From an uncultured Alphaproteobacteria bacterium (GTDB taxonomy: Bacteria > Pseudomonadota > Alphaproteobacteria > CAAHEQ01 > UBA3637), in the NCBI GenBank assembly GCA_934202735.1, contig CAKPYH010000001.1, positions 75,614-139,613 of the forward strand: DNA of 64,000 nucleotides, read 5' to 3'. This document shows, piece after piece, positions 2,677-51,780 of this stretch. Position 1 is the stretch's first letter. Every line of letters begins with the position of its first letter. The translations under genes and the position numbers were made by a program. The notes below the pieces were generated by a model. It had not been told where the DNA came from, made no database searches, and was given only the letters and a program-made list of their open reading frames with translations.

Positions 2677-3596
2677 TCAGAATCCTTTGACTTACTATAC
2701 GACAAAGGATGAGATTTTTCAACTATCTTTTTTAATCTTTCGGGTAAAATATGCGTATAGACTTCGGTTGTGGCAATATCGGCATGCCCCAACATCTGCT
2801 GAACCGACCGTAAATCGGCATCGTGCGCGACCAGATGACTGGCAAAAGAATGACGCAAAACATGGGGCGAGACCCGTTCGGGATTCAACCCCGCCTGCAA
2901 GGCCACATGCTTCAAATGCTTGAAGAACCCATCACGCGTCAAGTGCCCTGTTCGCCCGGCGGACGGAAAGAGCCATTTATTGATACGACCGATTTTCAAG
3001 CGACTTTCCCGCAACACCAACCAATCTTCCAACGCCGCTACCGCCGGTGCATTCAAAGGCACTTGTCGTTCTTTTTGCCCTTTACCGACCACGGTCAACA
3101 TTCGGTTATCCGGCGGCAAATCCGCATGAGCCGTCACCGCTTCCACGGGCAGGCCGACCAACTCGCTGACCCGCAACCCGGACGCATACAAAACTTCCAA
3201 CATCGTGTACATACGGCGATCCGTTTGCGCCGCCACCCGCAACAAGGTGGCCACTTCTTCTTCACTTAAATATTTTGGCAAAGATTTACCCACCTTGGGC
3301 GACATCAGGTAATCGGTCGGGTTTTGTGTAATGATATTTTCCGAAAACAAATAACGATAGTACTCACGCAACGCCGATAACCGTCGGGCTTGCGTTTTGA
3401 CGGCCAGGCCGTTTTGGGCCAGTTGGTGCAGATAAGTTTGCAAGTCTTTGGCCGTTGCCCGGTTCAGACACGAATGATGCGCTTGTAAAAACGCCGTTAC
3501 GTCCGTCAGATCCCGCCGATAAGAATCCACCGTCCGGGGTGAAGCACCGCGTTCAGCCACCATCATTTCCAGAAACGAATCAATATATTTGTCCAA
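2673..3596 (-). CDS. tyrosine site-specific recombinase, XerC/XerD family (307 aa)
   Basis: MDKYIDSFLEMMVAERGASPRTVDSYRRDLTD... and the C-terminal HVLRHSFASHLVAHDADLRSVQQMLGHADIATTEVYTHI catalytic region (R..H..R..Y). Its stop TGA (2673-2675) overlaps the ATG (2674-2676) of the downstream lptG-like gene as ATGA. Confidence 0.8.
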   Translation of the reverse strand: MDKYIDSFLEMMVAERGASPRTVDSYRRDLTDVTAFLQAHHSCLNRATAKDLQTYLHQLAQNGLAVKTQARRLSALREYYRYLFSENIITQNPTDYLMSPKVGKSLPKYLSEEEVATLLRVAAQTDRRMYTMLEVLYASGLRVSELVGLPVEAVTAHADLPPDNRMLTVVGKGQKERQVPLNAPAVAALEDWLVLRESRLKIGRINKWLFPSAGRTGHLTRDGFFKHLKHVALQAGLNPERVSPHVLRHSFASHLVAHDADLRSVQQMLGHADIATTEVYTHILPERLKKIVEKSHPLSYSKSKDSE

Positions 3597-5094
3597 CGGT
3601 TTTGACCCACCTTTCGGTCAATAAAGCCCGCCGATTTTCGGCCGGAAGCACGGGGGCCAGCGCATCCAAAAGATTCTGTTCCAAAGCCGATGACCGATTC
3701 AACAAAATGACGGCGTTTAACACCGCCTTTCCTACCGGTCCGTCCCGGACCTGTCGCGCAACGGATTCGGCCACTGCCGGCGGATAATCCCGTACCCCGC
3801 TACCTGTCGGAATCCGGGTCAAATCCATCTCTGATACAGGCCATGCCGCGGGGGCGATATTCCATACCGACCGACAAAAGGCATCACGCTCACATGCGGC
3901 CAACTCCCTGTCCGCCGGTTCGGGGACCTGATCCGTCAACAGGGAAATCAAGACGGCCGTCCCGGGTACTTTTCGGTGAGCTTCGGCCCGGGCCAACAGG
4001 TCCGCCTTATCCGCCAAAGTCCACACGGCGCGCAAGGCTTTTTCCGATCGTATCAAAGGGGCCGTATCATCTCCCGTCATCATCAAAACCACCGGAGCCA
4101 CAGCCACCAATGCTGCACCGTCCGAGACACTACGCACATAATCTCGCACACGGGAACGCCGTTGTTCCGGGGGAACTGTCATCGCCTTCTGATACAGACG
4201 TGCCCGATATACGGGACCTTCAGTGAGTTTTGTGTTTTTCACCGGTACAGCCAACACACGTTCCCAATCCGTTCGGTTCAGGCCGGCCCGTTCGGCCGCG
4301 GTCAGGCGTACTGTTTCGCCTACATCCGGTGCCAAAGCCAACACACGCCATTGTCCGCGGTTCAAGGGCAACGTCAACACCCGATCGCCGAACACCCGGG
4401 CCGCCAAAGGTAATTCCCACACGGATATATCTGTCGCCGACAAACCGGTCGGCATCGGGTCGGTCGTCCGTTGATAAGCCCGATTCCCCGCAGCGGTCCA
4501 CAAGGCATGTCCGTCCGTTCCGGCTTCCCGATAGACATCAAATGCCAAGGCGGCCGGGGCTTCGTCTCCTGCCACATCGGCACAGACGGCTCGGATCCAC
4601 CGTTCATCCGGCCCAAACGCCGCCGGTGTCTCGCCGGCACACGCATCCTGATACCGGCCCAACGCAAACAAAGCGGTCGCCCGATCCCGGCGTATATCAT
4701 CGGTCCGGCGGGTCGGCGGTATTTGATCCGTCAACATCAAAACATCTTCAAACAAGCCTTGTGTCAGCAAGACATCGGCCCGGGCCCGCCAATAGGCTGC
4801 CTGTGCCGTATCCAGGCTTTTCACACCCCCTACATCGGTCATCAGGACCATGCGCACTATGGCTCGTTCAGCCCCCGATAGCGGCAAAGACTGTACGGCA
4901 TTCAGGTGTTGAATCACCGTTTCTGCCACAGGTTCGGTTCCAAAGACGTCGGCCGTAAAGGGCGTTTTTATGCCAACGGTTCCCTGCCCTAAACCTGACA
5001 AGTCATCTACCACCACTTCGGCTAGGGCAGTCCCACTCCAACACAGAGCCGACAAGAGCAAGCCCCACAAGCCTGCGTGTTTATTTTTGCCCAT
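3580..5094 (-). CDS. hypothetical exported protein (504 aa, GC-rich, N-terminal signal peptide)
   Basis: MGKNKHAGLWGLLLSALCWSGTALA|EVVVDD... Long ORF with Ala/Arg/Asp-rich composition and no family motif I recognise. Start overlaps the xer gene end by 17 nt. Confidence 0.6.
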   Translation of the reverse strand: MGKNKHAGLWGLLLSALCWSGTALAEVVVDDLSGLGQGTVGIKTPFTADVFGTEPVAETVIQHLNAVQSLPLSGAERAIVRMVLMTDVGGVKSLDTAQAAYWRARADVLLTQGLFEDVLMLTDQIPPTRRTDDIRRDRATALFALGRYQDACAGETPAAFGPDERWIRAVCADVAGDEAPAALAFDVYREAGTDGHALWTAAGNRAYQRTTDPMPTGLSATDISVWELPLAARVFGDRVLTLPLNRGQWRVLALAPDVGETVRLTAAERAGLNRTDWERVLAVPVKNTKLTEGPVYRARLYQKAMTVPPEQRRSRVRDYVRSVSDGAALVAVAPVVLMMTGDDTAPLIRSEKALRAVWTLADKADLLARAEAHRKVPGTAVLISLLTDQVPEPADRELAACERDAFCRSVWNIAPAAWPVSEMDLTRIPTGSGVRDYPPAVAESVARQVRDGPVGKAVLNAVILLNRSSALEQNLLDALAPVLPAENRRALLTERWVKTVGQIY

Positions 5095-7217: not shown

Positions 7218-7325
7218 GTCATCTTCCGGGCTTGACCCGGGCACTCACTCTTACCTGTCATCTTCGGACGCTATTTTTCTTTCGTCATCTTCGGGCCCCA
7301 CCGGATATCCAGGGAACATAAAGTC
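7218..7325 (+). repeat. cluster of 3 copies of short repeat GTCATCTTC(C)GGGC[TTGACCCGG/CCCACCGGA...] (left sub-array 1)
   Basis: Copies begin at about 7218, 7256 and 7284. The unit at 7284-7316 is the reverse complement of 9457-9490. Confidence 0.8.
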
Positions 7326-7335
7326 TTCTTTCTTT

Positions 7336-7521
7336 TCACTGTGTTTCACGGGTACACGTCCGCATGTACAGGGTTCCCGTCAAAACATTGTGTTCCATCA
7401 CACACCGGGTAATGGTCAGGCTCTTATCGGGATTGACATGTACGTCCGAAACAACCGGCACCTGCGAACACGCCCCCAGGGACAAGGCAACACCCCATAC
7501 GATTAAAATCCGTTTCATCAT
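7336..7521 (-). CDS. small putative lipoprotein (61 aa)
   Basis: MMKRILIVWGVALSLGACSQ... is a signal peptide with lipobox L-G-A-C. SD-like GGAAGGTG lies upstream of the ATG. Confidence 0.45.
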   Translation of the reverse strand: MMKRILIVWGVALSLGACSQVPVVSDVHVNPDKSLTITRCVMEHNVLTGTLYMRTCTRETQ

Positions 7522-7758
7522 TCACCTTCCGAAAAGCCTTGATGAGAGGCGGCTGGAAGTTAGTAACTATTTTAGGAATAGTGCGATATATTCGGCCAAA
7601 AAGCATTATTCTATCGCCTTCCAGCCAAAGCCGGACAGGCAATTTTGCCTTATTTTCCTAAAAGGGTTACTACACCCCGGGGCAGGAATCACCTGCCTTA
7701 TTTTTACTTTATCCGATTTTCAGAGAAATGTCAAAGGGAAAGTGAATAAACGACAGAT

Positions 7759-7915
7759 GTCATCTTCGAGCGTTTATTTTCTTTTGTCATCTTCGGGCTT
7801 GACCCACACACTTACTCCCCCCCTGTCATCTTCGGTCCCTATTTTTAAGAATTGTCATCTTCGGGCTTGACCCGGAGATCCATAGGGAAGAGAAGTCAAT
7901 ATATTATAAGGATTT
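7759..7915 (+). repeat. cluster of 4 copies of the GTCATCTTCGGGC repeat (left sub-array 2); the terminal about 64-bp copy is the inverted partner of 9597-9664
   Basis: Copies begin at about 7759, 7785, 7823 and 7852. 7852-7915 (TGTCATCTTCGGGCTTGACCCGGAGATCCATAGGGAAGAGAAGTCAATATATTATAAGGATTT) is near-identical to the reverse complement of 9597-9664, with a 27-nt exact core AAATCCTTATAATATATTGACTTCTCT. Confidence 0.85.
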
Positions 7916-8191
7916 CAGTACTCCTGGATTTTCGCTTCCGCGGGACTGCGTAAATAAAAAGTTGCCGGTGGCAAGTTTTTATGCGCAAGGCAATGAGCCT
8001 TATTGAAAACAAGGACAACCCTTTGTCCGCCGTTTGAAATATAGGCGGAATTGAACAAGGTAATAGTGAGAAACCGGGAATGACAGAACAGTCCTTATTT
8101 CCACACCATCCCCCATACCACAAAGGGGCCCCAACCGGAACCCCCTTGCACACTTGAACCGTATCCTAAACATACAATCTACAGTCAATGG

Positions 8192-9328
8192 TTATTTTTT
8201 CCGGACACAGTACCCACCTGTCATTTCACGATTAGGACATTTCGCACATTCCGTTGCATCAGCTGCGACAGCAGCGTCATATTGACAATAAGTACAATAA
8301 CCATCACTACCTCTAAATTGTTTATCACTACATATAAGTGCACACCTCCCATCTAGCATAACACGATTAGAACACTTCGCACATTCAGACTCATCAGCCG
8401 GTGCCGCTATATTAGCCCCACAAGGCCAACAAAAGCCATCGTTGGCCATGAAACGGTTGGAACATTTAGCACATTCTGTCGCATTAGTAATCGTGAAATC
8501 CGACCGTTGATCACAAGGCCAGCAAGCACCATTATTGTCTCTCCAGCCATCATCACATATAGGGACACATTCCCCGTTGTCGTTCATTTCACGATTGGGA
8601 CACTTCGCACATTCCGTTGCATCTGCTGAGATCGCAGTGTTATAATTACAAGGCCAACAAAAGCCAGTGTTGTTCATGAAACGATTAGGACACTTCGCAC
8701 ATTCTGTCGCATCAATAACCGTGATAGCATAGGCTGTACTACAAGCATAACAGCTACCCCACTTCTCTTTCATCGGCTTGTCCCCTGGGCAATCGTTGTC
8801 GCAGGTTTCATCGGCCACACAGGTCCCGTTTTCATCATGCTGACAATAACCGCAGGTCGGGGTATTCCCGCCCTCACCCGCGGCCGGCGCAAAGGTGAAC
8901 ACAATGGTATTGCCGTCTTCGGCACAGGTATAATCCGCTTTCACTCCGTTCTCCCACACCTTGGTGGCCCCCAAAGTTATTGTACGCGCCATCTGCACCC
9001 CGTTATTCAAAACGTGATTGCAAACGGGCCGAGTAATATCCGATACCGTCAAGGTAAATCCGGGATCCGCCGCAGCCAACGCCACCGGAAAATCACCGAT
9101 TTTATTGGCAAACTCCGCGTCCAGTGTCGTGGCCGATACACCCGTCCCTAACAACGTATATGTTGACAAAGCAACCGCCCGTTTATTCACCCCGTCTATA
9201 ATATCATTGGCTTTCAACCGATTCATGGCGTATGTATAGCCCGCTATGCCACCGATGGATAAAATCCCCATAATGGCCAAGACCCCCAGCATTTCCACCA
9301 TACTGCGGCCGGTTTCATTGTTTCTCAT
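8192..9328 (-). CDS. type IV pilin/pseudopilin-like protein with cysteine-rich tandem C-terminal modules (about 378 aa from ATG 9328)
   Basis: The ORF-track ORF is 8192..9514. The internal start MRNNETG|RSMVEMLGVLAIMGILSIGGIAGYTYAM is preferred, as it gives a class-III (prepilin) leader with Gly at -1 and Glu at +5 followed by a roughly 20-aa hydrophobic helix. SD-like AAGGGAAAG lies upstream. The C-terminal half contains 5-6 modules ATECAKCPNR(F/E)M..G.C.PC (C-x2-C...C-x2-C), mirrored by DNA repeats of about 120-140 bp period at about 8225, 8362, 8450, 8590 and 8680. Confidence 0.7.
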   Translation of the reverse strand: MRNNETGRSMVEMLGVLAIMGILSIGGIAGYTYAMNRLKANDIIDGVNKRAVALSTYTLLGTGVSATTLDAEFANKIGDFPVALAAADPGFTLTVSDITRPVCNHVLNNGVQMARTITLGATKVWENGVKADYTCAEDGNTIVFTFAPAAGEGGNTPTCGYCQHDENGTCVADETCDNDCPGDKPMKEKWGSCYACSTAYAITVIDATECAKCPNRFMNNTGFCWPCNYNTAISADATECAKCPNREMNDNGECVPICDDGWRDNNGACWPCDQRSDFTITNATECAKCSNRFMANDGFCWPCGANIAAPADESECAKCSNRVMLDGRCALICSDKQFRGSDGYCTYCQYDAAVAADATECAKCPNREMTGGYCVRKK

Positions 9329-9369
9329 TTTGCTTTCCCTTTCTTGATTGAGTTTTCTCTTTGGCTCGG

Positions 9370-9450: not shown

Positions 9451-9664
9451 GACTTCTTTCCTGGATCTCCGGTGGGGCCCGAAGATGACAGGAAAGCGTG
9501 AGTACCCGGGTCAAGCCCGAAGATGACAGGAAAGTGTGAGTGTCCGGGGCCCCTTACCTTGTCATTCCCATGAAAATGGGAATCCATTGGGCACTAAAAT
9601 CCTTATAATATATTGACTTCTCTTTACCCTGGATCTCCGGTGGGGCCCGAAGATGACAAAAGAA
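9451..9664 (-). repeat. right array of the GTCATCTTCGGGC repeat family in inverted orientation (reads ...GCCCGAAGATGAC...), 4-5 copies
   Basis: Contains CCGAAGATGACAGG three times (9478, 9518, 9647) plus TTGACTTCT(T/C)TT(T/A)CC..TGGATCTCCGGTGGGGCCCGAAGATGACA units at 9451 and 9614. It is the inverted partner of 7218-7325 and 7759-7915. Confidence 0.85.
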
Positions 9665-9750
9665 AATAAACGCCCGAAGAGCCAAAGGGAAGAAATCCTT
9701 GTCCCCCTGTGTATCGTGCCACAGACTTTCTAACAGGTACCCCGGCCTGA

Positions 9751-9784
9751 CAAAAAAACACCCCGATCAACCGATGGGGTGTTC
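9751..9784 (-). terminator. rho-independent terminator downstream of rplQ
   Basis: Hairpin ACACCCC-GATCAACCGAT-GGGGTGT followed on the minus strand by a T-run (A7 on the plus strand at 9752-9758), directly 3' of the rplQ stop. Confidence 0.6.
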
Positions 9785-9799
9785 TTTCCTAACCGATAC

Positions 9800-10312
9800 T
9801 TATTCTGCTTTTGCAGTGGCCTTTTTGGCTTTTTCGGCTTTCGGTTCTTTTTTGGCCTTAGCGGGTTTCTTTTCCGCTTTAACTTCTTCGGCCGGAGTTT
9901 CGGCTTCCGCCGCGACTTCCACGACTTGCCCCGAATCTTTACCTTTGGCCGTTATATCGCGGTCCACCAATTCCACAATCGCCATAGGGGCGCAATCACC
10001 AAAGCGGAAACCCGCTTTTAACACGCGCACATAGCCACCTTTACGTTCTTTGTACCGCGGCCCCAAAACGGTCAGCATTTTTTCCACGGCCTTGTCATCA
10101 CGCAGGAAAGACAGCAATTGCCGCCGGATATGGAGTGTATTTTCTTTACCTTTTGTGACCAATTTTTCAAAGATTGGCCGCAATTCCTTGGCTTTCGGCA
10201 AAGTTGTTTTAATTTGTTCATGCTTGGTCAATGCGACCGCCATATTGGCGAACATAGACCGCCGATGAGCAATTTTTTTATTTAATGTTCTTTTTTTAAA
10301 ACCGTGACGCAT
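9800..10312 (-). CDS. rplQ: 50S ribosomal protein L17 with about 50-aa Lys/Ala/Glu-rich C-terminal extension
   Basis: [47 protein letters not shown]... then ...[37 protein letters not shown]. Start chosen at MRH (ATG 10312) rather than the track ATG 10336. Confidence 0.9.
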
Positions 10313-27706: not shown

Positions 27707-28405
27707 TTATCGCCGATCAGCTTCGGAAAACAACGTTCCATGCGGCACGGCGCGTTGTGCAATCTGTTCGGCCGCCGTTAAAGACCGGCGGGGTTTTCCG
27801 TCTGTTTTTTTGGTTTTCAGGCCCAAAATCATATCCAATTCTTCATTGATACGGTCCAGTTCCGCCTGTTTTTGATCCACCCGCCGTTGTTGAGCTTCCA
27901 ATTCGTTCCGATAGCGACTGCTGATACCGGGTAGAGCTTGTGTAATGGATGCCGTGGCCAACTCAATTTCTTGTGTCGTTAAAAAGCGTTCCAAAATCAA
28001 CGCCAAACGTTCGGCTTCTTCATGCCCGTTCAAAGAAGCCAAAAAAGCCCACCGATAGGCACTTAAATCATCTTGGGGGAGTACAAAGCCTTTGGAATAC
28101 AACTGTGCCACCCGATACTGGGCCGGCACATTTCCCAACACCGCCGCCGCAATCAAACAATATCCGGCCTTATTACGAACCGTTGGATCCACATCCAGCA
28201 AGAATGCTTCCCCCCGCTCGCGCATCTCCTCGGCCGTTGGCATAAAGACACCGCCCCGATTTTCATCAAACACGCCATCACATTCGGCCGGGATAGGGGC
28301 TTCTTGATTACCGTCATCATAATTCCAAAAAGCCAACTGTGCCCGCACCGACAGGGCCGTCAACAGGGCAATACCCATGATCAAAACAAAACCGGTCTTT
28401 TTCAT
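27707..28405 (-). CDS. secreted Sel1-like repeat protein with C-terminal coiled coil (232 aa)
   Basis: Signal peptide MKKTGFVLIMGIALLTALSVRAQ. Sel1-type motif ...GNVPAQYRVAQLYSKGFVLPQDDLSAYRWAFLASLNGHEEAE... Heptad-like C-terminus. Confidence 0.55.
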   Translation of the reverse strand: MKKTGFVLIMGIALLTALSVRAQLAFWNYDDGNQEAPIPAECDGVFDENRGGVFMPTAEEMRERGEAFLLDVDPTVRNKAGYCLIAAAVLGNVPAQYRVAQLYSKGFVLPQDDLSAYRWAFLASLNGHEEAERLALILERFLTTQEIELATASITQALPGISSRYRNELEAQQRRVDQKQAELDRINEELDMILGLKTKKTDGKPRRSLTAAEQIAQRAVPHGTLFSEADRR

Positions 28406-33580: not shown

Positions 33581-35860
33581 TTATTGAGTTCCTTTATGTT
33601 TCCAAGTACAATGATGTCCCGTACAGGTTATTATTGAAAATTCGTCTTTTTTTACCGCTTCTATGACATCATCAACAGTAAAAGTAAACTTTTTATCAGA
33701 TTCTTCCATACGCTCACAGTGATTCGGGAAATCAATAGACACCGTTCCGTCTTTTTTACCAAATAACTTTGCGCCACAAGCAATTTTTTTACCATTAAAT
33801 TCTTTGGCTTCTGTTGATGAAATATCCTTTCCTTGACCACCATCTGCACTAACGGCTAAAATAGCTAACCGCGAAGCATCCATTACAACTGAATTTGCAT
33901 AATGTTGAATCATTGCTTTATTGGCTCCTACTTCTGCTACTTTCTGGATTCCAGATAATATCGTTTTCGGATCGTTTAAGGTAGCATTATCACCACCATT
34001 AGCCATTGCAGTAAATAGGATTACTTTTTGCATTAAATCCATTGTAAAGCCTTTAAAACATTGTTCCGCTGATTTCCATTGTGATTCCGGTAATTTTGAT
34101 AAACAAGGCCAAGAATCAGATTTAACTTGTTCCATATCAATAGAGTCATCAATTTTTTTCATGACAGATGAAACTTTTGATGGATCTTCCAATGTATTTT
34201 GAACTATTGGCAAAATCATTTCTTTGAGAATCCCATCTTTTAATTCAGAATAATAGCTTTCTGCAGACGCAGGCAAATCATATTTTTGAATTGGCGTAGA
34301 TACCTTTAATAAATCTTGAACTTCCTGATTTAAATTAAAGATGGCGTATTGAGATGCTGTTTTACCTTTATTATCTTTGAGAGTTTTATCTGCACCATAC
34401 TGCAACAATAATTTTATCATTTTTGTATCTTCGGCGGATGATGCCGCTTTCATCAATGCTGTTACACCTGCTTTATCGACAGCATTCACATCTATTCCTT
34501 TTTTTAATAAATGCTCTAAAACGGTTGGTTGATTACATTGAATCGCAATAGATAATAAATTTTGGCCATACGCATTTTGAGTATTTATATCTGCACCATT
34601 TTTTAATAGTAAATCTATTATATCCAAGCGTTTTTGTATATAAGAGTTATAATCGGGTATTATAGTAAAAATACCGTCTTTTTTGAATTCATTAAAAGTT
34701 TTTTCATCTACTACTTCGGCACTTTTTATTAAAGCCGAATCACCATATTCGTCTTTATAATTAACATCTGCACCTTCTTGAATAAGTTTTTGTATCCCTT
34801 CTAATGTTGTACTTTCATAATCAATCTCTGATAATAATTTCATACTGTTTTTTGATTTTTGAGCTTCTGTATCGGATAAAGCAGTTCCCCCTAGAGCCAC
34901 TATATATTGGTTATAATTTGGATCCTTAATTAAATATTCATTTGTCTGTAATAATTGAAGAGGGGTTTTACCTTTCTCATTTTTGACATTAACATTAACT
35001 TTTTGTTCCAAAAGAAACTTTAAAGCATCGGGTTTTGCTGCTCCGGCGGCAACTATAATGGGATAGTCTTCCTTAACAGGGTGTTTGTAAAAAATACGTT
35101 CTGCTTGAACATTAGGGTCCGCGCCCAATCGCAAAAGATATTTAGCCATTTCCATAGATTTATGATTTTTTATAGCTTGCAAAAAGAGATAATTCAAATT
35201 TTCTTTTCCTATATCTAACCCAGCCTTTTGAAAAATAGATATGACTTCCGGATAAGAGCTATTTCTGACAATATCTTCATAAAAAGAAGCAGAATATTTA
35301 TCTTGTTGATGAATATTGGCGCCATTTGTTATAAGCAATTCTATAATCTCTGGTTTTGCGTCTAATATAATTGCAGATTTTAATGCAGAATCATTTCCAA
35401 ATATAGATGGGATTTCTGTTCTTACATCAGCACCAGATTGGATTAAAAACTCTACTACTCTTGGATCTTTATTACGCAAAGCAGATATTAAAGGGGTTTC
35501 TTTCATATTTTCAGCACCGATAAGTTCATTAACATCGGCTCCAGATTTAACTAAATATTGCACCATCTCTAATGTTCCATCAGCACATACCTGTTGAAAC
35601 ACAGAGGTATATTCTGTTTTAGCGTTTATATCCGCCCCGGCTTTAATTAATTCTGAAAAAATTGCAGTATCTTTTACCAGCATCAACGGGTAAATGCCTG
35701 ATTGTTCATCTGCTTGATTGACATTTGCACCATTCCTAATAAGAGCTTGAATTTCGGATAACGGTTTATTTTCTGCTAAAGCTTTTGTTAGTTCTGTAGC
35801 ATTTGCAGTATTGTAAAATAAACAAGACACTAAAACAGTACTTAATAATAAATTTTTCAT
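33581..35860 (-). CDS. ankyrin-repeat protein with N-terminal signal peptide (759 aa)
   Basis: Start ATG 35860 gives MKNLLLSTVLVSCLFYNTANA|TELTKALAENK.... Multiple ANK-type repeats (...NGANVNQADEQSGIYPLMLVKDTAIFSELIKAGADINAKTE..., ...GADVN..., ...LLKNGADINTQNAYGQNLLSIAIQCNQPTVLEHLLKKGIDVNAVDKAGVTALMKAA...). AT-rich codon usage. Confidence 0.8.
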   Translation of the reverse strand: MKNLLLSTVLVSCLFYNTANATELTKALAENKPLSEIQALIRNGANVNQADEQSGIYPLMLVKDTAIFSELIKAGADINAKTEYTSVFQQVCADGTLEMVQYLVKSGADVNELIGAENMKETPLISALRNKDPRVVEFLIQSGADVRTEIPSIFGNDSALKSAIILDAKPEIIELLITNGANIHQQDKYSASFYEDIVRNSSYPEVISIFQKAGLDIGKENLNYLFLQAIKNHKSMEMAKYLLRLGADPNVQAERIFYKHPVKEDYPIIVAAGAAKPDALKFLLEQKVNVNVKNEKGKTPLQLLQTNEYLIKDPNYNQYIVALGGTALSDTEAQKSKNSMKLLSEIDYESTTLEGIQKLIQEGADVNYKDEYGDSALIKSAEVVDEKTFNEFKKDGIFTIIPDYNSYIQKRLDIIDLLLKNGADINTQNAYGQNLLSIAIQCNQPTVLEHLLKKGIDVNAVDKAGVTALMKAASSAEDTKMIKLLLQYGADKTLKDNKGKTASQYAIFNLNQEVQDLLKVSTPIQKYDLPASAESYYSELKDGILKEMILPIVQNTLEDPSKVSSVMKKIDDSIDMEQVKSDSWPCLSKLPESQWKSAEQCFKGFTMDLMQKVILFTAMANGGDNATLNDPKTILSGIQKVAEVGANKAMIQHYANSVVMDASRLAILAVSADGGQGKDISSTEAKEFNGKKIACGAKLFGKKDGTVSIDFPNHCERMEESDKKFTFTVDDVIEAVKKDEFSIITCTGHHCTWKHKGTQ

Positions 35861-36148
35861 AATAATCCATCCCTTAAAAACATATATTGGCATGTTAGTA
35901 GAATTACATATTAAAGTCAACAAAATAATTTTGCTAATAATTCACATATAGCCCACATGACTGCCCCATCACCTGCCCCCTTTTACAGGCATTGTTTTTG
36001 ATTGACAAGAACTGATTTGTGTACATAAATCCCGGGATAAAAATGCTATTTTTTACAATTTGACAAGCTTTTGAATAAACAATCCTTGTTTTCTTGTTGC
36101 TTTTTGAAAAATATGTATGTATAAAGATCTTGTGAAAGGTGAAATGAG

Positions 36149-36601
36149 ATGAAAAAGAAGTTAAAATTTATTGGATTGGTGTTCTTGGGATGCATGCTAT
36201 CCACAAATGTGTTATCATGGACAACCACAATTAATTCGGTAAAAAATTATGAAAAATTTGTTTATGATGAAGATACAGAAATGTATACAGGGGATATTGA
36301 ACGGGTCTATATGGAGAAAAAAGCCCCCGATGGAAAGATTTATGTTTTATATGATTTGACAGTAGAACAAAAAGAAAATGATGATGGAACCCTGGAATCG
36401 TCTGATTATTCTCTTAAAACAGGAAACGATATTTATCCTCGCCAAATGGATGATTATTTTTTACTGGATTATCATTTCAGGCCTTTAACCCATTTAGGGG
36501 TTAAACTGGGCACACATAAAGGTCAAATTATTTTTGAGATTCCGGTCAATCAAAAAGATTTGCCCAAGACTTTACTTTATAAAAAGCAACCTGTAAAATA
36601 A
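36149..36601 (+). CDS. hypothetical secreted/lipoprotein-like protein (150 aa)
   Basis: MKKKLKFIGLVFLGCMLSTNVLSW... is a signal peptide with an imperfect lipobox. First gene of a 4-gene co-directional cluster. Confidence 0.45.
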   Translation: MKKKLKFIGLVFLGCMLSTNVLSWTTTINSVKNYEKFVYDEDTEMYTGDIERVYMEKKAPDGKIYVLYDLTVEQKENDDGTLESSDYSLKTGNDIYPRQMDDYFLLDYHFRPLTHLGVKLGTHKGQIIFEIPVNQKDLPKTLLYKKQPVK

Positions 36602-36617
36602 CTGATAGAAAAATAAA

Positions 36618-38237
36618 ATGAAATATGGTATTTTTTGCATAAGTTTATTTTTATCAACGCTGGCTCATGCTGATTATATACTTGATCAGGCAAAGATGGA
36701 TGCCGATATCCAAAAAGAATTATCGCAAAAGCAATATACTGTGGAGGATCCTTTGGTGTTGGTCAATCCTTATGGTATTTCTCCATTGAGTGCTCTTATT
36801 TCCTTTTCTACAAAAGAATCAACGCAGGCTTGTATCACAGTAAAAGGAAAAGATAAATATACCACTTTTTCAAAATGTTTTAATGATAGAACAAAAAATC
36901 ACTTGATCCCCGTCTATGGTCTTTATTTTGGGAAAAACGATATCGTATTAACGATAAAAGATAAAGATAAAAATCAAAGTAAAGAATATCCGTTGGAAAT
37001 TGAAACGGAAAAAATGCCTATCAACATGAAAGTGAATATTCAAAAAATAAACGCGGAAAAAATAAAACCGGGACTGACTTTTACAACACCCGGGGTTATC
37101 GTAAATGAGGGAAGCTACGCTTATGCATTTGATGCAAACGGTGATATTCGTTGGATTTTAACCGATCCGATCATGGGAAAAATGTCTCCGTTGCACGTGT
37201 TAAAAGATGGTACTTTAATGATGGGTTCTGAAGAACATGACCCAAAATATACTGTGGCGTATAAATCTCTTTATGAATTGGATTTGATGGGGAAAATTCA
37301 TCATAAAATCCAAGCCGAAGATGACATTCAACATGATATTGTCAAACTGCCTAATGGTAATTATTTGGCTTTGGTTAATGCAACGGGGAAACCCACGATT
37401 GCCGATTGTGTGGTAGAATTAACCCCCGATAATAAAGTCGTTGATCGCTTTGATATAGATAAAATTTTAGGGGTTGAAGATGAAAGAATTACGCCGCTTG
37501 TTGACCACTATCTTTATCATGATAACTATAAACGTGAAAAAATGGATGCCATGCATTTGAATTCTTTAAACTATGATCCTGAAGATGATAGCATTATTAT
37601 GACAGGAAGATTTTTTAACTTTTTATTGAAGATTGATCGTAAAACAAAACAAGTTAAATGGATTTTGGCAAATCCGATAAATACTTGGATAAAGCCACAC
37701 TTGCGGGATAAATTATTAAAACCGACAGATAAAAATTTTGATTATATCTATGGGGCTCACGCGGCAAAACCGCAAGGTCATAATCATTATACTGTTTTAG
37801 ACAACGGTCTTTATCGTGATATATATGACCAAGGTTCCGCACAACCCATTGAGACCTATAATCCTTCACGCAGTTGGTCGCGTGGCGTAGAGTTTGTTGT
37901 TGATGAAAAAAATATGACCGTTTCAGTCGCATGGCAATATAAACGCGGGCCAGAAATTTATACTCACTATGTTGGGGATGTAGATAAATATGAAGCAGGC
38001 CATTATTTAATGAATTTCGGTGCTGTCTTTGATGATAAAGATGAAACACCGGCCAGCGTTGAAACGGCATTAAATCCACAGAAACAACCGGCTCCTTCTT
38101 ATGCTAAAATCATTGAAGTCAAGGATGGAGAAGTTGTTTTTGAAGCACAAACAGCCGGCCTGTTAAATAATACGGTTTATCGTGTAGAACGTTTTGAACC
38201 ATACGTATTAGATACTGAATACAAATTGGGCAAATAA
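36618..38237 (+). CDS. putative periplasmic beta-propeller protein, arylsulfate sulfotransferase (ASST)-like, paralogue 1 (539 aa)
   Basis: Signal peptide MKYGIFCISLFLSTLAHA|DY. Motifs ...DIQHDIVKLPNGNYLAL..., ...AMHLNSLNYDPEDDSIIMTGRFFNFLLKIDRKTKQVKWILANP... and ...GAHAAKPQGHNHYTVLDNG... resemble the His-containing signature blocks of bacterial ASST (PF05935) as I recall them. Not verified by search. Confidence 0.4.
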   Translation: MKYGIFCISLFLSTLAHADYILDQAKMDADIQKELSQKQYTVEDPLVLVNPYGISPLSALISFSTKESTQACITVKGKDKYTTFSKCFNDRTKNHLIPVYGLYFGKNDIVLTIKDKDKNQSKEYPLEIETEKMPINMKVNIQKINAEKIKPGLTFTTPGVIVNEGSYAYAFDANGDIRWILTDPIMGKMSPLHVLKDGTLMMGSEEHDPKYTVAYKSLYELDLMGKIHHKIQAEDDIQHDIVKLPNGNYLALVNATGKPTIADCVVELTPDNKVVDRFDIDKILGVEDERITPLVDHYLYHDNYKREKMDAMHLNSLNYDPEDDSIIMTGRFFNFLLKIDRKTKQVKWILANPINTWIKPHLRDKLLKPTDKNFDYIYGAHAAKPQGHNHYTVLDNGLYRDIYDQGSAQPIETYNPSRSWSRGVEFVVDEKNMTVSVAWQYKRGPEIYTHYVGDVDKYEAGHYLMNFGAVFDDKDETPASVETALNPQKQPAPSYAKIIEVKDGEVVFEAQTAGLLNNTVYRVERFEPYVLDTEYKLGK

Positions 38238-38240
38238 AGG

Positions 38241-39404
38241 ATGAACAAAAAATGTATTATTTTGGTTTTATTATCTTTGTGCGGCATATCCGAGTACGCC
38301 ATTGCCGGGCCCACTTCAGATTTTTATGAATCATGGAAAGAAAAATTACATCATGATTATGGTTTTGATTATCGTATTCGCGCCGGATTTATGGCTCAAC
38401 GTGGTTCCCCAAGTGGCCATAAAACAGTCTTGCGCGATAAATATGAAATTGAAGCGAATTGGGAGGCTTTTGCTTCGGATAGTTTTGGACAAGGTTCTAT
38501 TCAATTTTTATACGAAGATATCAATTATCCCGGGATTGAAGGTTCTCTGATGGCTTCCAGATTAGGTGTTGCAACCCCCATAAATGATGATGCGTTGCAA
38601 CGGGAGTATTTCAAACGTTTGACATATACACATCAACTTCCCGGTTCATTAGATAATATCAGTTTATCGGTTGGACAATTCCTTATCGGAAATTTTGGAA
38701 AGACACGTTATAAATCAAAACCTCTTAATCATTTTAATAATTTTTCTTTGCAAAAAAACATGTCTAAAGCGTATCCGACAGGGGGCGTTGGGGGATATAT
38801 GACTTATAAGCCAACGCCTGATTTAACACTCATTACCGGACTTCAAAGTACAACGAATTATTTTCCGCAAAACATCAGTGTAAAACATCTTGATGCGAAT
38901 AAATGGACGAACTTTTTTTATATCTCATATTCACCCAAATTAACCGATTTAGGAAAAACAATCTTGACAGGATGGATTTATCACAGTCCAGCGATAAAAA
39001 AATATGAGGGACAATTTAATAAAGCATTTCAAAAATCTGCCGATGGATGGGTCATAACTATCAGGCAAGATATTGGTAAATGGACGGGGCTTATTAAAGT
39101 CAATGGGTCAACAGGTAATCGTATGGCCATTCGGCAAAGTTATTCGGCAGAATTAATGTATAACAATCCTTTAAATAGAAATGAATTAGATCAAATAGGA
39201 ATTGGTTTTGCCTCTAATAGGGTCAGTCATTTAAATAAAAAAGCAGTCCGATCTTGGGAAAATGTATTGGAAGGATATTGGTCCTGGGGGATTTCCAAGT
39301 ATTTGACGATTACACCAGACATTCAATTATACATCAATCCGGCCTTAACAAAGGATAGAAATACTGTTGTCGTAAATAGTATTCAAGCAAAATTTTATTT
39401 CTAA
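38241..39404 (+). CDS. putative outer-membrane beta-barrel protein/porin (387 aa)
   Basis: Signal peptide MNKKCIILVLLSLCGISEYAIA|GP. Alternating amphipathic segments. C-terminal ...NSIQAKFYF ends in Phe (OMP beta-barrel signature). Confidence 0.5.
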   Translation: MNKKCIILVLLSLCGISEYAIAGPTSDFYESWKEKLHHDYGFDYRIRAGFMAQRGSPSGHKTVLRDKYEIEANWEAFASDSFGQGSIQFLYEDINYPGIEGSLMASRLGVATPINDDALQREYFKRLTYTHQLPGSLDNISLSVGQFLIGNFGKTRYKSKPLNHFNNFSLQKNMSKAYPTGGVGGYMTYKPTPDLTLITGLQSTTNYFPQNISVKHLDANKWTNFFYISYSPKLTDLGKTILTGWIYHSPAIKKYEGQFNKAFQKSADGWVITIRQDIGKWTGLIKVNGSTGNRMAIRQSYSAELMYNNPLNRNELDQIGIGFASNRVSHLNKKAVRSWENVLEGYWSWGISKYLTITPDIQLYINPALTKDRNTVVVNSIQAKFYF

Positions 39405-39413
39405 AATATAAAA

Positions 39414-50051: not shown

Positions 50052-50257
50052 TCCCCCCGTTCCCGAATCGGCTTTTGTCGGACACTGTCGCGGAACAATT
50101 CAAACCAAGCGGACCGTGTCTGCTGCGGTGCGGTTAAAATCACGGATCCGCCTTGCATATTCAAATTGACTTCATTTTGAAAACTGCAAGCCTGTATCAC
50201 ATTTTTCGGCAACCGAATCCCCATTGAGTTTCCAATTTTCACTAATTTTACTTTCAT
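50039..50257 (-). CDS. MazE/AbrB-type antitoxin (72 aa)
   Basis: MKVKLVKIGNSMGIRLPKNVIQACSFQNEVNLNMQGGSVILT... (SpoVT/AbrB swapped-hairpin). Overlaps the toxin start by 13 nt. Confidence 0.7.
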   Translation of the reverse strand: MKVKLVKIGNSMGIRLPKNVIQACSFQNEVNLNMQGGSVILTAPQQTRSAWFELFRDSVRQKPIRERGEWEW

Positions 50258-51780
50258 ACGCTTTTTCCTTTCACGACTTGAGCCAAAACCATGTATAATC
50301 GCCCGACATCAGACCCGATAACAATACTCATCAACAACTTATTTTCATCTTCTTTATCCAAAACCTGCGTCATGGATTCAAAGGCCCGCATATATTCGTC
50401 CACACTGCGCCGAAAAGCGGTATCTGATTGATATAATTCTTTGATTTTTTTATATTTACTATCATTGATTTCGGTCTTGATATGCCGCATAAAAACGGTT
50501 TTATCTCCACTATAATACCGTTCCCACAGGTTTTCTTCCGCTTTGGGCGAAAACAAGTGCGCCATATCCACCGATAATTCTTGCAAGCGAGTTAAAATAA
50601 TACCGGCTTCCTGCAACAAGTCATCTGTTTGTACCTGACGCACGATGGGTACGGTCCGAACGGTTTGTCCGGCTTTTTCAATCTGTCCGGCCACTTTTTC
50701 CGCCGTAGCCCGGAACGTTTCCAACGCACCTTGCACATCTCCTTTGGTTTGTGCAAAAGTTTGCGTGGCCTGCTGCATATTTTGAACCGCCGCCGCCGTA
50801 GCCTGAACAACGGATTCGGCTTGTTCTTTCAAGCCCGCTTCCACCACAGCCATACGATTGGCGGTCCGACCGACTTCCTGTTCCAACAAATCCCCGTGAG
50901 CCCGAAACACCGATAAGACTTTTTCCAGATTACCGAACAAGCGCGCATTTTGTTGCCGGGCACTGGTTTCATACAGGTTCACGGCTTCTTCAATCCTTGC
51001 CCCGTTTTGATTCAAAGCCGCCATGACTTGGTCCGCTTTTGTGACCGCTTGTTCGGATTGTTGATTGATATGCCCGATTTCGCCCAGCAAAGCCCGCAAA
51101 TCAGTTGCCTGACCACCTAAGGATTGGGTCAAGCGACCGGTTTCCTGAATGGTTTGCGAACAAACGCGTTCCAAAATAGCCGCCTGCTCGGAAAATAAAG
51201 CTGACGTGCGATCGGCTTGGGTATTGGCTGCATCCGTCATTTGGGCTAATTTTTGAATGTGATCGGCAATTTCCCGCACCGAATCAATGGTTTTTGTATC
51301 TACATGCTTGATGACGGCACTTAAATCACGGACCCATTTTTTCAAGTCATCCCGCACCGCCTGCGTTTGGTCATTGACGGCTTGAAACACCGTTCGGAAC
51401 TCGGTGATTTGGGTCCGTAAAGCATCGGTCAGTGCTTTGGTATATACCGCGCCTTCTTCGGTCGGATACACCAATTCATTCAAATACGAACGCAACACTT
51501 CCGCTTCGGTTTCCAACCGGTCCGTCCGGTCAAAATACGCACACACCAACCACACAATCACCATCGGCAAAGCTAATCCGCAGACCCCCCCGATAAATTC
51601 GGCCGGAGCCAGGTCATACCGATTTTGCCACCACCCCGATACCGACAGGTAGTGCCCGATAAAAACCATCCAAAGCAAGCTGAATATCCCCGAAATCCAC
51701 GTATATTTATTACGCCACCAGGGTCGCAAGATATGCCGTCCTTGAAACTCAAAGGTCAACTGATCCGACTTCACACGCAT
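50254..51780 (-). CDS. hypothetical membrane-anchored coiled-coil protein (508 aa)
   Basis: Two N-terminal hydrophobic helices (...WISGIFSLLWMVFIGHYL... and ...GVCGLALPMVIVWLVCAYF...) then about 400 aa of Gln/Ala/Glu-rich heptad-like sequence. The stop overlaps the mazE-like start (ATGA). Confidence 0.6.
   Translation of the reverse strand: MRVKSDQLTFEFQGRHILRPWWRNKYTWISGIFSLLWMVFIGHYLSVSGWWQNRYDLAPAEFIGGVCGLALPMVIVWLVCAYFDRTDRLETEAEVLRSYLNELVYPTEEGAVYTKALTDALRTQITEFRTVFQAVNDQTQAVRDDLKKWVRDLSAVIKHVDTKTIDSVREIADHIQKLAQMTDAANTQADRTSALFSEQAAILERVCSQTIQETGRLTQSLGGQATDLRALLGEIGHINQQSEQAVTKADQVMAALNQNGARIEEAVNLYETSARQQNARLFGNLEKVLSVFRAHGDLLEQEVGRTANRMAVVEAGLKEQAESVVQATAAAVQNMQQATQTFAQTKGDVQGALETFRATAEKVAGQIEKAGQTVRTVPIVRQVQTDDLLQEAGIILTRLQELSVDMAHLFSPKAEENLWERYYSGDKTVFMRHIKTEINDSKYKKIKELYQSDTAFRRSVDEYMRAFESMTQVLDKEDENKLLMSIVIGSDVGRLYMVLAQVVKGKSV

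Follow-up and report, generated by a model that had tools for sequence, protein, structure and literature searches.

A candidate modular type IV pilin-like surface protein with a cysteine-rich stalk, from a large gene family of uncultured gut Alphaproteobacteria

Introduction

Modular type IV pilins, in which a pilin module is joined to a bulky non-pilin module that is presumably presented by the filament (for example PilB and PilC of Streptococcus sanguinis), are widespread and come in many architectures, and minor pilins of the CofB type carry extra C-terminal domains (PMC8179133). Here we describe a gene for a protein of comparable layout in an uncultured alphaproteobacterium, encoded on the minus strand of a 64,000-nucleotide stretch of DNA (hereafter the window; positions 75,614 to 139,613 of contig CAKPYH010000001.1, assembly GCA_934202735.1). 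From its N-terminal signal, its predicted fold and the behaviour of its many relatives we hold the product to be, on balance, a modular type-IV-pilin-like surface protein that is displayed on a filament and diversified by recombination between paralogues, with the filament assembly being the part that we infer.

Several described systems offer points of comparison. In the pilE/pilS genes of Neisseria and in gene conversion of the Anaplasma msp2 type, a conserved 5' region stands next to a hypervariable 3' region, and many copies recombine. Genomes of Planctomycetes and Lentisphaerae carry tens of scattered prepilin-type genes of the DUF1559 / H-X9-DG kind, far from assembly operons; their products differ in the C-terminal domain and have a canonical GFTLIE signal, to which TIGR02532 responds, and none is known to have a Cys-rich modular stalk. 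The PilV shufflon adhesins of the IncI plasmids R64 and TP114 join a constant pilin part to alternative C-terminal parts by site-specific recombination, which sets their binding specificity (PMC9045228). Finally, the Cys-rich region of Mst1, from the mastigoneme of Chlamydomonas, is a stiff extracellular rod in the solved filament, built as a ladder of disulfides about 11 Å apart, and has been likened to the Cys-rich domain of ephrin receptors (PMC10602792).

Results

N-terminal signal and pilin-like module

The open reading frame (ORF) is a complete coding sequence located exactly where an earlier note on this DNA had placed it (minus strand, 378 codons; Table 1), and an identical or 99% identical protein is annotated on a 340-kb ENA contig. 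A start at MRNNE(S/T)G is common to all close homologues; an alternative in-frame TTG upstream, at position 9514, would add 62 residues. The protein begins with MRNNETG/RSMVEMLGVLAIMGILSIGGIAGY, where the slash marks the putative cleavage site, so that Gly7 stands at -1, Glu12 at +5, and about 20 hydrophobic residues follow. The segment MRNNETG/RSMVEMLGVLAIMGILSIGG therefore has the short basic leader, the Gly(-1), the Glu(+5) and the hydrophobic stretch of a class III (prepilin) signal, and no second N-terminal motif of this kind was found in the six frames of the window. Across the family the leaders measure 4-16 aa and close with (N/T)E(S/T/N)G, the nearest Met standing 4-16 residues ahead of the Gly. 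The resemblance to a class III signal, already proposed in the earlier note, extends to distant relatives, in which G-1, S+2, E+5 and the MLG-LA--G-L stretch are invariant. Across 27 diverse relatives the invariant columns are G7, S9, E12, M13, L14, G15, L17, A18, N41, C103 and C135, and the first eight of them are likewise invariant among 42 relatives. The +1 residue is Arg in 336 of the 337 family proteins. Judged by its sequence, the signal is a divergent class-III-like variant.

The part that follows is predicted to fold as a pilin. In an AlphaFold2 model built on 42 relatives (mean predicted local distance difference test score, pLDDT, of 82), an unbroken helix at residues 12-59 is followed by a beta-sheet at residues 80-146. 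The module thus comprises R+1, E+5, the hydrophobic N-terminal part of the alpha1 helix, the sheet and a Cys103/Cys135 pair, and the long alpha1 helix, the beta-sheet and the two invariant cysteines that mark a pilin fold are all present in the prediction. The best Foldseek matches in the PDB are TcpA in the toxin-coregulated pilus (TCP) filament of Vibrio cholerae (8uhf; E 1.3e-3, probability 1.0) and, also at the top, a type IVb pilin of enterotoxigenic Escherichia coli (ETEC; 9iuf, TM score 0.50 on the target, probability 1.0). When a profile of the N-terminal domain from the 27 diverse relatives was run against the PDB, the best 7 matches were all type IV pilins (E 0.02-0.5), and the alignment with TcpA reaches the conserved F-x-[LI]-x-V...C motif that contains Cys103. 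The weak matches of this part in NCBIfam and Pfam, although they stay below the cut-offs, are likewise to prepilin models. The mature region had been described as unlike known pilins; for aa 8-158 this view is overturned by the model, Foldseek and the profile search, and we assign these residues, on the strength of the prediction, to a type IVb-like pilin module. The protein as a whole has the composition by which modular pilins have been defined (PMC8179133), namely a pilin module (aa 8-158) and, here, a Cys-rich region (aa 159-378).

These results bear directly on the simplest alternative, that of an ordinary Sec-exported Cys-rich protein that signal peptidase I would cut, YTYA34 being one candidate site, and whose likeness to pilins would be a coincidence. 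A small-x-small site (T-Y-A) does follow the hydrophobic stretch, and the Pfam N_methyl model is matched only below its threshold, but the hydrophobic segment is 20 or more residues long and contains an acidic residue, and the predicted helix 12-59 runs unbroken through the putative cleavage site. Since, moreover, type IV pilins account for every one of the best matches in fold and in sequence, and GRSMVE is invariant, we regard simple Sec export as very improbable.

Cysteine-rich C-terminal region, a putative stalk

The C-terminal 220 residues (aa 159-378) contain five ECAKC motifs and are built in the order head-S-L-S-L-tail, where S and L denote short and long modules (Table 1). Of the five to six repeats counted in the earlier note, five are therefore real and a sixth is not found; similarly, its description of four cysteines per module fits the S modules, with their C-x2-C...C-x2-C arrangement, and not the others, which have 6, 7 or 3. 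Structure prediction, which had been suggested as a check, returned a confident stack of short beta-hairpins arranged as a chain (pLDDT 85-95). A check with hidden Markov models (N_methyl, EGF-like, zinc) was less clear-cut: for the protein and more than 42 relatives it gave sub-threshold matches only, including NCD3G, EGF and TNFR-like models, and on the C-terminal region no Pfam model, including Ephrin_rec_like, Furin-like and TNFR, exceeded its cut-off.

A relationship to extracellular disulfide-rich proteins came instead from the PDB. The family profile matched the Cys-rich tandem of Mst1 with an E value of 3.7e-17, and the depositors of the Mst1 chain (PDB 8tx1) also name it an ephrin type-A/B receptor-like domain protein. 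Foldseek with the C-terminal model gave weak matches only (probability <= 0.2), to megalin/LRP2, the Cys-rich region of the insulin/IGF1 receptor and members of the TNFR family; all of these, without exception, are extracellular disulfide-rich repeats. In addition, the total number of cysteines in the mature protein is even in 307 of the 337 family proteins (91%, p ~5e-59). Because the cysteine counts are not multiples of a Cys4 unit, the totals are even and the relatives in the PDB are disulfide-rich, the repeats would best be read as a disulfide-bonded extracellular stalk, and not as zinc ribbons.

The zinc-ribbon idea, according to which the repeats are tandem Cys4 modules that are possibly cytoplasmic or bind nucleic acids, draws on the C-x2-C...C-x2-C spacing of the S modules and on weak, sub-threshold zinc-finger matches in Pfam for two or three relatives. 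It does not accommodate modules with 4, 6, 7 and 3 cysteines or the prevailing even totals, and the export signal ahead of the repeats and the extracellular nature of the best solved relatives (Mst1, the insulin receptor Cys-rich region, the TNFR family and megalin), the nearest of which is a disulfide-ladder rod, speak against it as well. We give it hardly any credence.

Family size and distribution

Relatives were sought by a word-indexed search, which returned 373 of them, and by an exhaustive phmmer search with residues 1-156 against 1.84 billion cluster representatives (50%-identity clusters), which gave 4,939 matches at E <= 1e-3 and 1,056 at E <= 1e-10. Relatives are also encoded by at least 568 stretches of GTDB species genomes; below, labels such as L001 and L086 denote stretches that carry relatives, and P-numbers denote family proteins. 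All but two of the best 80 GTDB stretches belong to metagenome-assembled genomes (MAGs) with the title Alphaproteobacteria bacterium, recovered from the gut of humans (Hadza), ruminants and rabbits; a single MAG contributes up to 7 of these loci, and almost all organism-assignable members belong to uncultured gut Alphaproteobacteria. Viral contigs were scanned as well, and since none of them yielded a relative, the family is not one that phages carry. The designation of the gene as an orphan is thus apt in one sense, as no assembly genes lie nearby, and wrong in another, as it is no singleton but has thousands of relatives and several paralogues per genome.

Family proteins extend from 114 aa to more than 1,100 aa. 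The small members (3,872 proteins at E <= 1e-5) consist of an invariant N-terminus of 42 residues, GRSMVEMLGVLAIIGVLS.GGIAGYT.AM...ANE, and a variable head of about 80 residues. This is the layout of a major pilin, and it makes the small members candidate major subunits; four of them lie in one cluster (Table 1). Neither Pfam nor NCBIfam captures the family in scans of the protein and its relatives: most of the 240 members listed are unnamed, and a few small ones are called 'type II secretion system protein' or PilE/PulG. The motif string is absent from the searchable literature, as is the combination of RF32 with pilin.

Allelic variation and probable recombination between paralogues

Nearly identical N-terminal segments of about 190 residues are present in fifteen 90%-identity clusters and one further allele. 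What follows them differs: these alleles have from 1 to 7 ECAKC motifs, in differing orders of S and L. Over the first 150 codons, nucleotide identity among the window, L086 and L088 is 97-99%; it drops past codon 150, and collinearity is gone past about codon 190. Since the 5' half is shared and the 3' half differs, the repertoire appears to be diversified by recombination between paralogues together with loss and gain of modules. One instance of the latter is P0010, which equals P0004 minus two modules, lost in frame between repeated CxLCS motifs, with a head like that of P0003; modules are thus indeed gained or lost through repeats, over evolutionary time.

The flanks tell a similar story. 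Genes with the common 5' half are found in four combinations of flanking genes (Table 1), from which it follows that there are at least three paralogous sites and that exchanges have re-paired the flanks. Some exchange breakpoints lie in or beside arrays of a 13-mer, GTCATCTTCGGGC, that stand on both sides of the gene in the window (Table 1); the downstream arrays hold inverted-repeat arms that match the upstream array. Counting copies with 1 mismatch, as was done throughout, only one other copy, itself with 1 mismatch, occurs in the 64 kb, where 0.04 would be expected by chance. The same 13-mer also flanks the paralogues in L086, L088 and L173 and is found upstream of P0087 in L002, a family member with 32% identity. 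The element may serve as a substrate for recombination or as a regulator site, or it may be a unit resembling a miniature inverted-repeat transposable element. Promoterless silent cassettes were not found in the window, nor were extra ECAKC-coding segments in any frame. Altogether, the sequences look like the outcome of paralogue recombination with occasional microhomology-mediated loss or gain of modules, and the arrangement of the flanks implies chromosome rearrangements anchored on family genes near origin-proximal markers. Several flanks are themselves origin-proximal, with parAB and rsmG at 54-57 kb of the window and dnaN-recF-gyrB in L086.

A different mechanism had been suggested by the DNA repeats within the gene, namely expansion and contraction by slipped recombination, which in its strongest form would make the gene a contingency locus where frequent slipped-strand mispairing rapidly switches the module number within a population. 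The comparison of repeat number across strains that had been proposed indeed yields 1 to 7 modules, even between near-identical alleles, and P0010 resembles P0004 after the in-frame loss of two modules. The repeats are real as well: an 83-nt unit occurs four times, with 63-80% identity between copies, and one 140-nt pair has 76%, the start-to-start spacings being 90, 135 and 228 nt. A repeat length of 120-140 bp, as given in the earlier note, is accordingly true of the L modules and the 140-nt pair only. However, Tandem Repeats Finder reports 0 arrays in the gene, the longest exact intragenic repeat has 20 nt, and the modules are 50-72% identical in DNA, so that the repeats, as read from the sequence, are old and diverged. 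Alleles differ by whole sets of divergent modules and by their flanks, and not by the copy number of one unit, and the window and L001, two sampled contigs with the same flanks, have the same five modules. With repeat copies that are 50-80% identical, too far apart for frequent slippage, recombination between paralogues is favoured, and rapid switching by slippage is in our estimate improbable.

Relatives linked to a serine recombinase

In four other loci a divergently oriented gene for an orthologous serine recombinase of about 200 aa lies 300-400 nt upstream of the family gene (Table 1). The intergenic region of L017 contains two palindromic sites of the form 17-2-17 (9737-9772 and 9881-9916), 144 bp apart, with GT and AC at their centres, a reverse-complementary pair of dinucleotides as expected for the inverted crossover sites of serine invertases; L004 has related inverted arms of 16 nt that are 143 nt apart. 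The segment of about 144 bp in L017 is probably an invertible promoter switch, and the recombinase-linked relatives, from their sequences, fit a switchable expression of surface proteins. The window contains no serine recombinase; the one recombinase gene found there is XerC/D-like and 4.6 kb away. P0038, another family protein, lies in an island that resembles a mobile element, with a resolvase, AbiEii, Fic, a DNA methylase and a phage-type integrase (L004 6619-19000).

Assembly machinery

We searched for assembly machinery with E. coli GspD, GspE, GspF, GspG, GspK, GspL, GspM and GspO as queries (tblastn and phmmer) and with a regular expression for the A24 motif (G-x-G-D-x-K), which recovered E. 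coli GspO as a control. Besides the window, the searches took in 80 GTDB loci, 80 metagenome loci and the surroundings of small pilin genes, amounting to about 1.75 Mb with roughly 170 family genes. The only machinery-type matches were T2SSE ATPases. That no pilus assembly genes lie within 20 kb, as the earlier note had it, can be extended to the entire 64-kb window, where no genes of a type II secretion system (T2SS), type IV pilus (T4P) or Tad system are seen, and in all these loci the family copies are orphans among housekeeping genes.

The ATPase matches deserve attention. Related MAGs encode a PilB/PilT/TadA-like ATPase that matches Pfam T2SSE at 2.7e-28 and carries the Walker A and Walker B motifs as well as the Asp and His boxes. 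It has 1,865 relatives at E <= 1e-10, the best 120 of them 65-89% identical; the few named ones are mostly from Alphaproteobacteria MAGs. In 4 of 4 distinct contexts the gene is solitary and divergent from rimP-nusA-infB, with no adjoining partner genes. The L018 copy has a long N-terminus of proline-rich repeats. By its sequence, then, the lineage encodes a motor of the type IV filament type, and such genes are scattered as singletons; with a solitary ATPase in the lineage, orphan pilin genes are less surprising. A further ATPase, in L017, was discarded as conjugation-related, being VirB11-like and located beside a possible VirB10 fragment.

Several observations weigh against a filament-displayed pilin. 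First, neither the window nor the family loci of about 1.75 Mb contain an A24 prepilin peptidase, a PilC/GspF platform or a secretin; as these neighbourhoods represent about 1-2% of those genomes, it follows that the family genes are not co-located with the machinery, and a genome-wide lack is not implied. Second, the conserved ATPase is solitary and could have another function. Third, a survey of Rs-D84, one order of gut Alphaproteobacteria, reported T4P genes in a different lineage only (PMC12306168), which would count here if the window comes from that order. Fourth, Arg at +1 is unusual among the known substrates of prepilin peptidases. Fifth, the E values of the fold matches are modest (~1e-3) and have a predicted model as their basis. 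Last, the curated models are missed: the protein reaches 13.2 bits with PF07963 (N_methyl) against a cut-off of 21.2, and 0 of 42 relatives match at E <= 0.01, while with TIGR02532 the small members reach 10.7 bits against 16.3 and the window protein has no match. The remaining weak NCBIfam matches are to 'prepilin peptidase-dependent' models only. Since these N-methyl thresholds are missed, we do not count the protein among the recognised N-methyl-domain proteins.

Much of this would suit a protein that derives from a pilin and works without a filament, its helix, whether cleaved or not, serving as a permanent anchor in the inner membrane and its stalk being displayed in the periplasm or across the envelope as a tethered receptor or coat protein that does not polymerise; the expanded family would then be a repertoire for surface display or cell contact that reuses the pilin scaffold. 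No platform, peptidase or secretin near some 170 family genes or in the window, the orphan position of every copy among housekeeping genes, and an atypical +1 Arg in a protein that escapes the curated prepilin models all agree with such an anchor. Yet an invariant G-1, an invariant E+5 and, in the small members, 42 invariant N-terminal residues point to packing between subunits and peptidase recognition, beyond what a simple anchor needs; many members are of pilin size and have no extra module; and the lineage has a conserved ATPase of the type IV filament type. We therefore consider a filament-independent anchor unlikely, though it is the alternative that we take most seriously.

Genomic context

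The gene sits at the end of the ribosomal protein operon, after rpoA-rplQ. A terminator-like hairpin with a U-run follows rplQ (Table 1), and the gene is therefore probably under its own promoter; read-through from the ribosomal operon was considered and is unlikely in view of the strength of this hairpin. Around it the window carries the housekeeping genes of a diderm alphaproteobacterium, among them parAB, rsmG, cysS, xseA, lptF/G, accA and holA. It also encodes an ankyrin-repeat protein, a Sel1-repeat protein and an autotransporter, a set of the kind that interacts with eukaryotes, and their presence suggests a host- or protist-associated lifestyle. Next to the gene, a small ORF with a lipoprotein-type signal lies between the downstream arrays. 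It is overlapped by a 168-aa ORF (7364-7870, plus strand) that is a gene in the public assembly, has no Pfam match and consists largely of repeat elements.

Table 1. Positions of the features described in the text (in the window unless a locus label is given)
Feature	Position	Strand	Basis or remark
Complete coding sequence, 378 aa + stop	8192..9328	-	ORF; stop codon 8192-8194
Shine-Dalgarno-like AAGGGA, 7 nt 5' of ATG	9336..9341	-	direct sequence reading
Leader MRNNETG (aa 1-7), putative -1 Gly at end	9308..9328	-	family comparison
Pilin-like module, aa 8-158	8855..9307	-	AlphaFold2 model, Foldseek, PDB profile search
Head module, aa 159-208, 50 aa, 7 Cys, CGYCQH...CPGDKP...	8705..8854	-	conserved in close alleles
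S module 1, aa 209-238, 30 aa, 4 Cys, ECAKCPNRF...FCWPC	8615..8704	-	
L module 1, aa 239-284, 46 aa, 6 Cys, ECAKCPNREM...C...C...C..C	8477..8614	-	
S module 2, aa 285-314, 30 aa	8387..8476	-	72% nt identity with S module 1
L module 2, aa 315-359, 45 aa	8252..8386	-	
Tail module, aa 360-378, 19 aa, ECAKCPNREMTGGYCVRKK, 3 Cys	8195..8251	-	
Upstream repeat array, three GTCATCTTCGGGC copies	9457..9680	-	inverted relative to downstream arrays
Downstream arrays, six copies of same 13-mer (7257-7296, 7759-7866)	7227..7919	+	
Hairpin + U-run after rplQ, intrinsic-terminator-like	9750..9785	-	RNA fold -20.7 kcal/mol, z = -2.7
Two terminator-like hairpins, 160-230 nt past stop codon	7962..8028	-	
61-aa ORF, lipoprotein-type signal (…ALSLGAC…), between downstream arrays	7336-7521	-	
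504-aa conserved ORF	3580-5094	-	no significant Pfam family
Sel1-repeat protein	27707-28405	-	
780-aa ankyrin-repeat protein	33581-35923	-	
Cluster: DUF4352 protein, two arylsulfotransferase (ASST) paralogues, OprB-type porin	36149-40847	+	
508-aa conserved ORF	50254-51780	-	no significant Pfam family; weak coiled-coil-type matches
Autotransporter	62047-63762	-	
Flanks rplQ / gene / CNNM	window 8192-9328 and L001		
Flanks rplQ / gene / alaS-recA	L088 6001-6966		upstream flank 99.2% identical to window
Flanks gyrB / gene / alaS-recA	L086 6001-7092, L087		
Flanks HIT / gene / CNNM	L173 4644-5324		
Serine recombinase loci	L017 8961-9953; L004 9037-10001; L084 9075-10001; L055 4473-5339		
Solitary T2SSE-family ATPase	L018 16431-18314; L174 10001-11233; L177 10001-11464		
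Four pilin-sized members (120-131 aa) in cluster, beside STAS-domain gene	L079 15995-18173		

Discussion

Taken together, the above results lead us to the following picture of a filament-displayed modular pilin. The leader would be removed after Gly7 by an A24-type prepilin peptidase, and through its N-terminal helix the protein would be inserted in a type IV filament or pseudopilus. Most subunits of this filament may be the 115-145-aa members of the same family, with the large modular members placed at its tip or periphery, from where the rigid, disulfide-laddered stalk would be held outward as an adhesin or variable surface antigen. At the level of the genes, the constant 5' half would be kept 97-99% identical across chromosomal sites while the 3' half varies in module number and sequence. 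The repertoire would be diversified by homologous recombination or gene conversion between paralogues, with an occasional in-frame loss or gain of modules at microhomologies of 14-20 nt, and in other genomes some of the family genes are seemingly switched by a serine invertase acting on the promoter segment of about 144 bp.

A bolder version of this picture is rather unlikely in our view. It takes the G/RSMVEMLG N-terminus as the mark of a non-canonical filament-like display system, with dispersed singleton machinery, such as the conserved ATPase next to nusA, and a recombining, partly invertase-switched repertoire of contact or adhesion molecules whose disulfide-ladder stalks are interchangeable; the standard PilD, PilC or secretin may be absent from it. 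With similarly low expectation, its owners would be host- or partner-dependent gut Alphaproteobacteria that have several to tens of such proteins per genome, and the family would drive rearrangement of the chromosome. A system that lacks the canonical machinery would be the more striking case if it were true, doubtful as we hold it to be.

If the filament-displayed modular pilin is correct, a single uncurated family of surface proteins on a pilin scaffold is a heavy investment for a whole clade of uncultured Alphaproteobacteria that live in the gut of humans, ruminants and rabbits, and profiles for the GRSMVEMLG domain and the ECAKC modules would annotate thousands of genes. The family would also offer modular pilins in a natural gradation of size on one scaffold, 115 aa to more than 1,100 aa, with which to study how type IV filaments take bulky cargo, and a handle on attachment to host or partner cells and on surface variation in these organisms. 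Its copies appear to be recombination substrates that reshuffle the origin-near chromosome, and because no machinery lies nearby, it is suited to testing whether type IV filament systems can be dispersed or non-canonical.

How, then, does this locus compare with the described systems? In function it stands nearest to the modular type IV pilins and to those type IVb pilins that have large minor pilins, such as CofB and TcpB. It shares with the modular pilins the pairing of a pilin module with a bulky non-pilin module, but its signal is G/RSMVEMLG, with Arg at +1, and falls below the IPR012902, TIGR02532 and PF07963 thresholds that define that set; the added module is an uncurated Cys-rich rod, and several copies per genome lie away from pilus operons. 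Among type IVb pilins, TcpA of V. cholerae and CofA/LngA of ETEC are the best structural matches to residues 1 to about 200, and the hydrophobic pattern VL-IMG--S-G-- and the F-x-I-x-V...C motif are shared. Leaders of type IVb pilins are 15-30 aa long, compared with 7 aa here. The type IVb systems are moreover encoded in compact operons with their own peptidase, whereas none was found here, and the sequence similarity is marginal (E ~0.02).

The PilV shufflon likewise joins a constant N-terminal pilin part to alternative C-terminal parts, but the present gene has no inverted alternative 3' segments and no Rci-type recombinase adjoining it, and the variation is between complete paralogues. With pilE/pilS and msp2 it has in common the conserved 5' region, the hypervariable 3' region and the recombination among many copies; in contrast to these, each copy seen is complete, having a start, a leader and flanking arrays of its own, and the 64 kb contain no silent cassettes. 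The stalk follows the C-x2-C-P-x-G-x-F...C-x2-C pattern of the Mst1 tandem, at the E value given above, although Mst1 is eukaryotic and has no pilin part and the Foldseek similarity is weak. What is new here is the combination of a divergent class-III-like signal with a Cys-rich stalk module in a very large, dispersed and, as it appears, recombining multigene family of an uncultured gut lineage.

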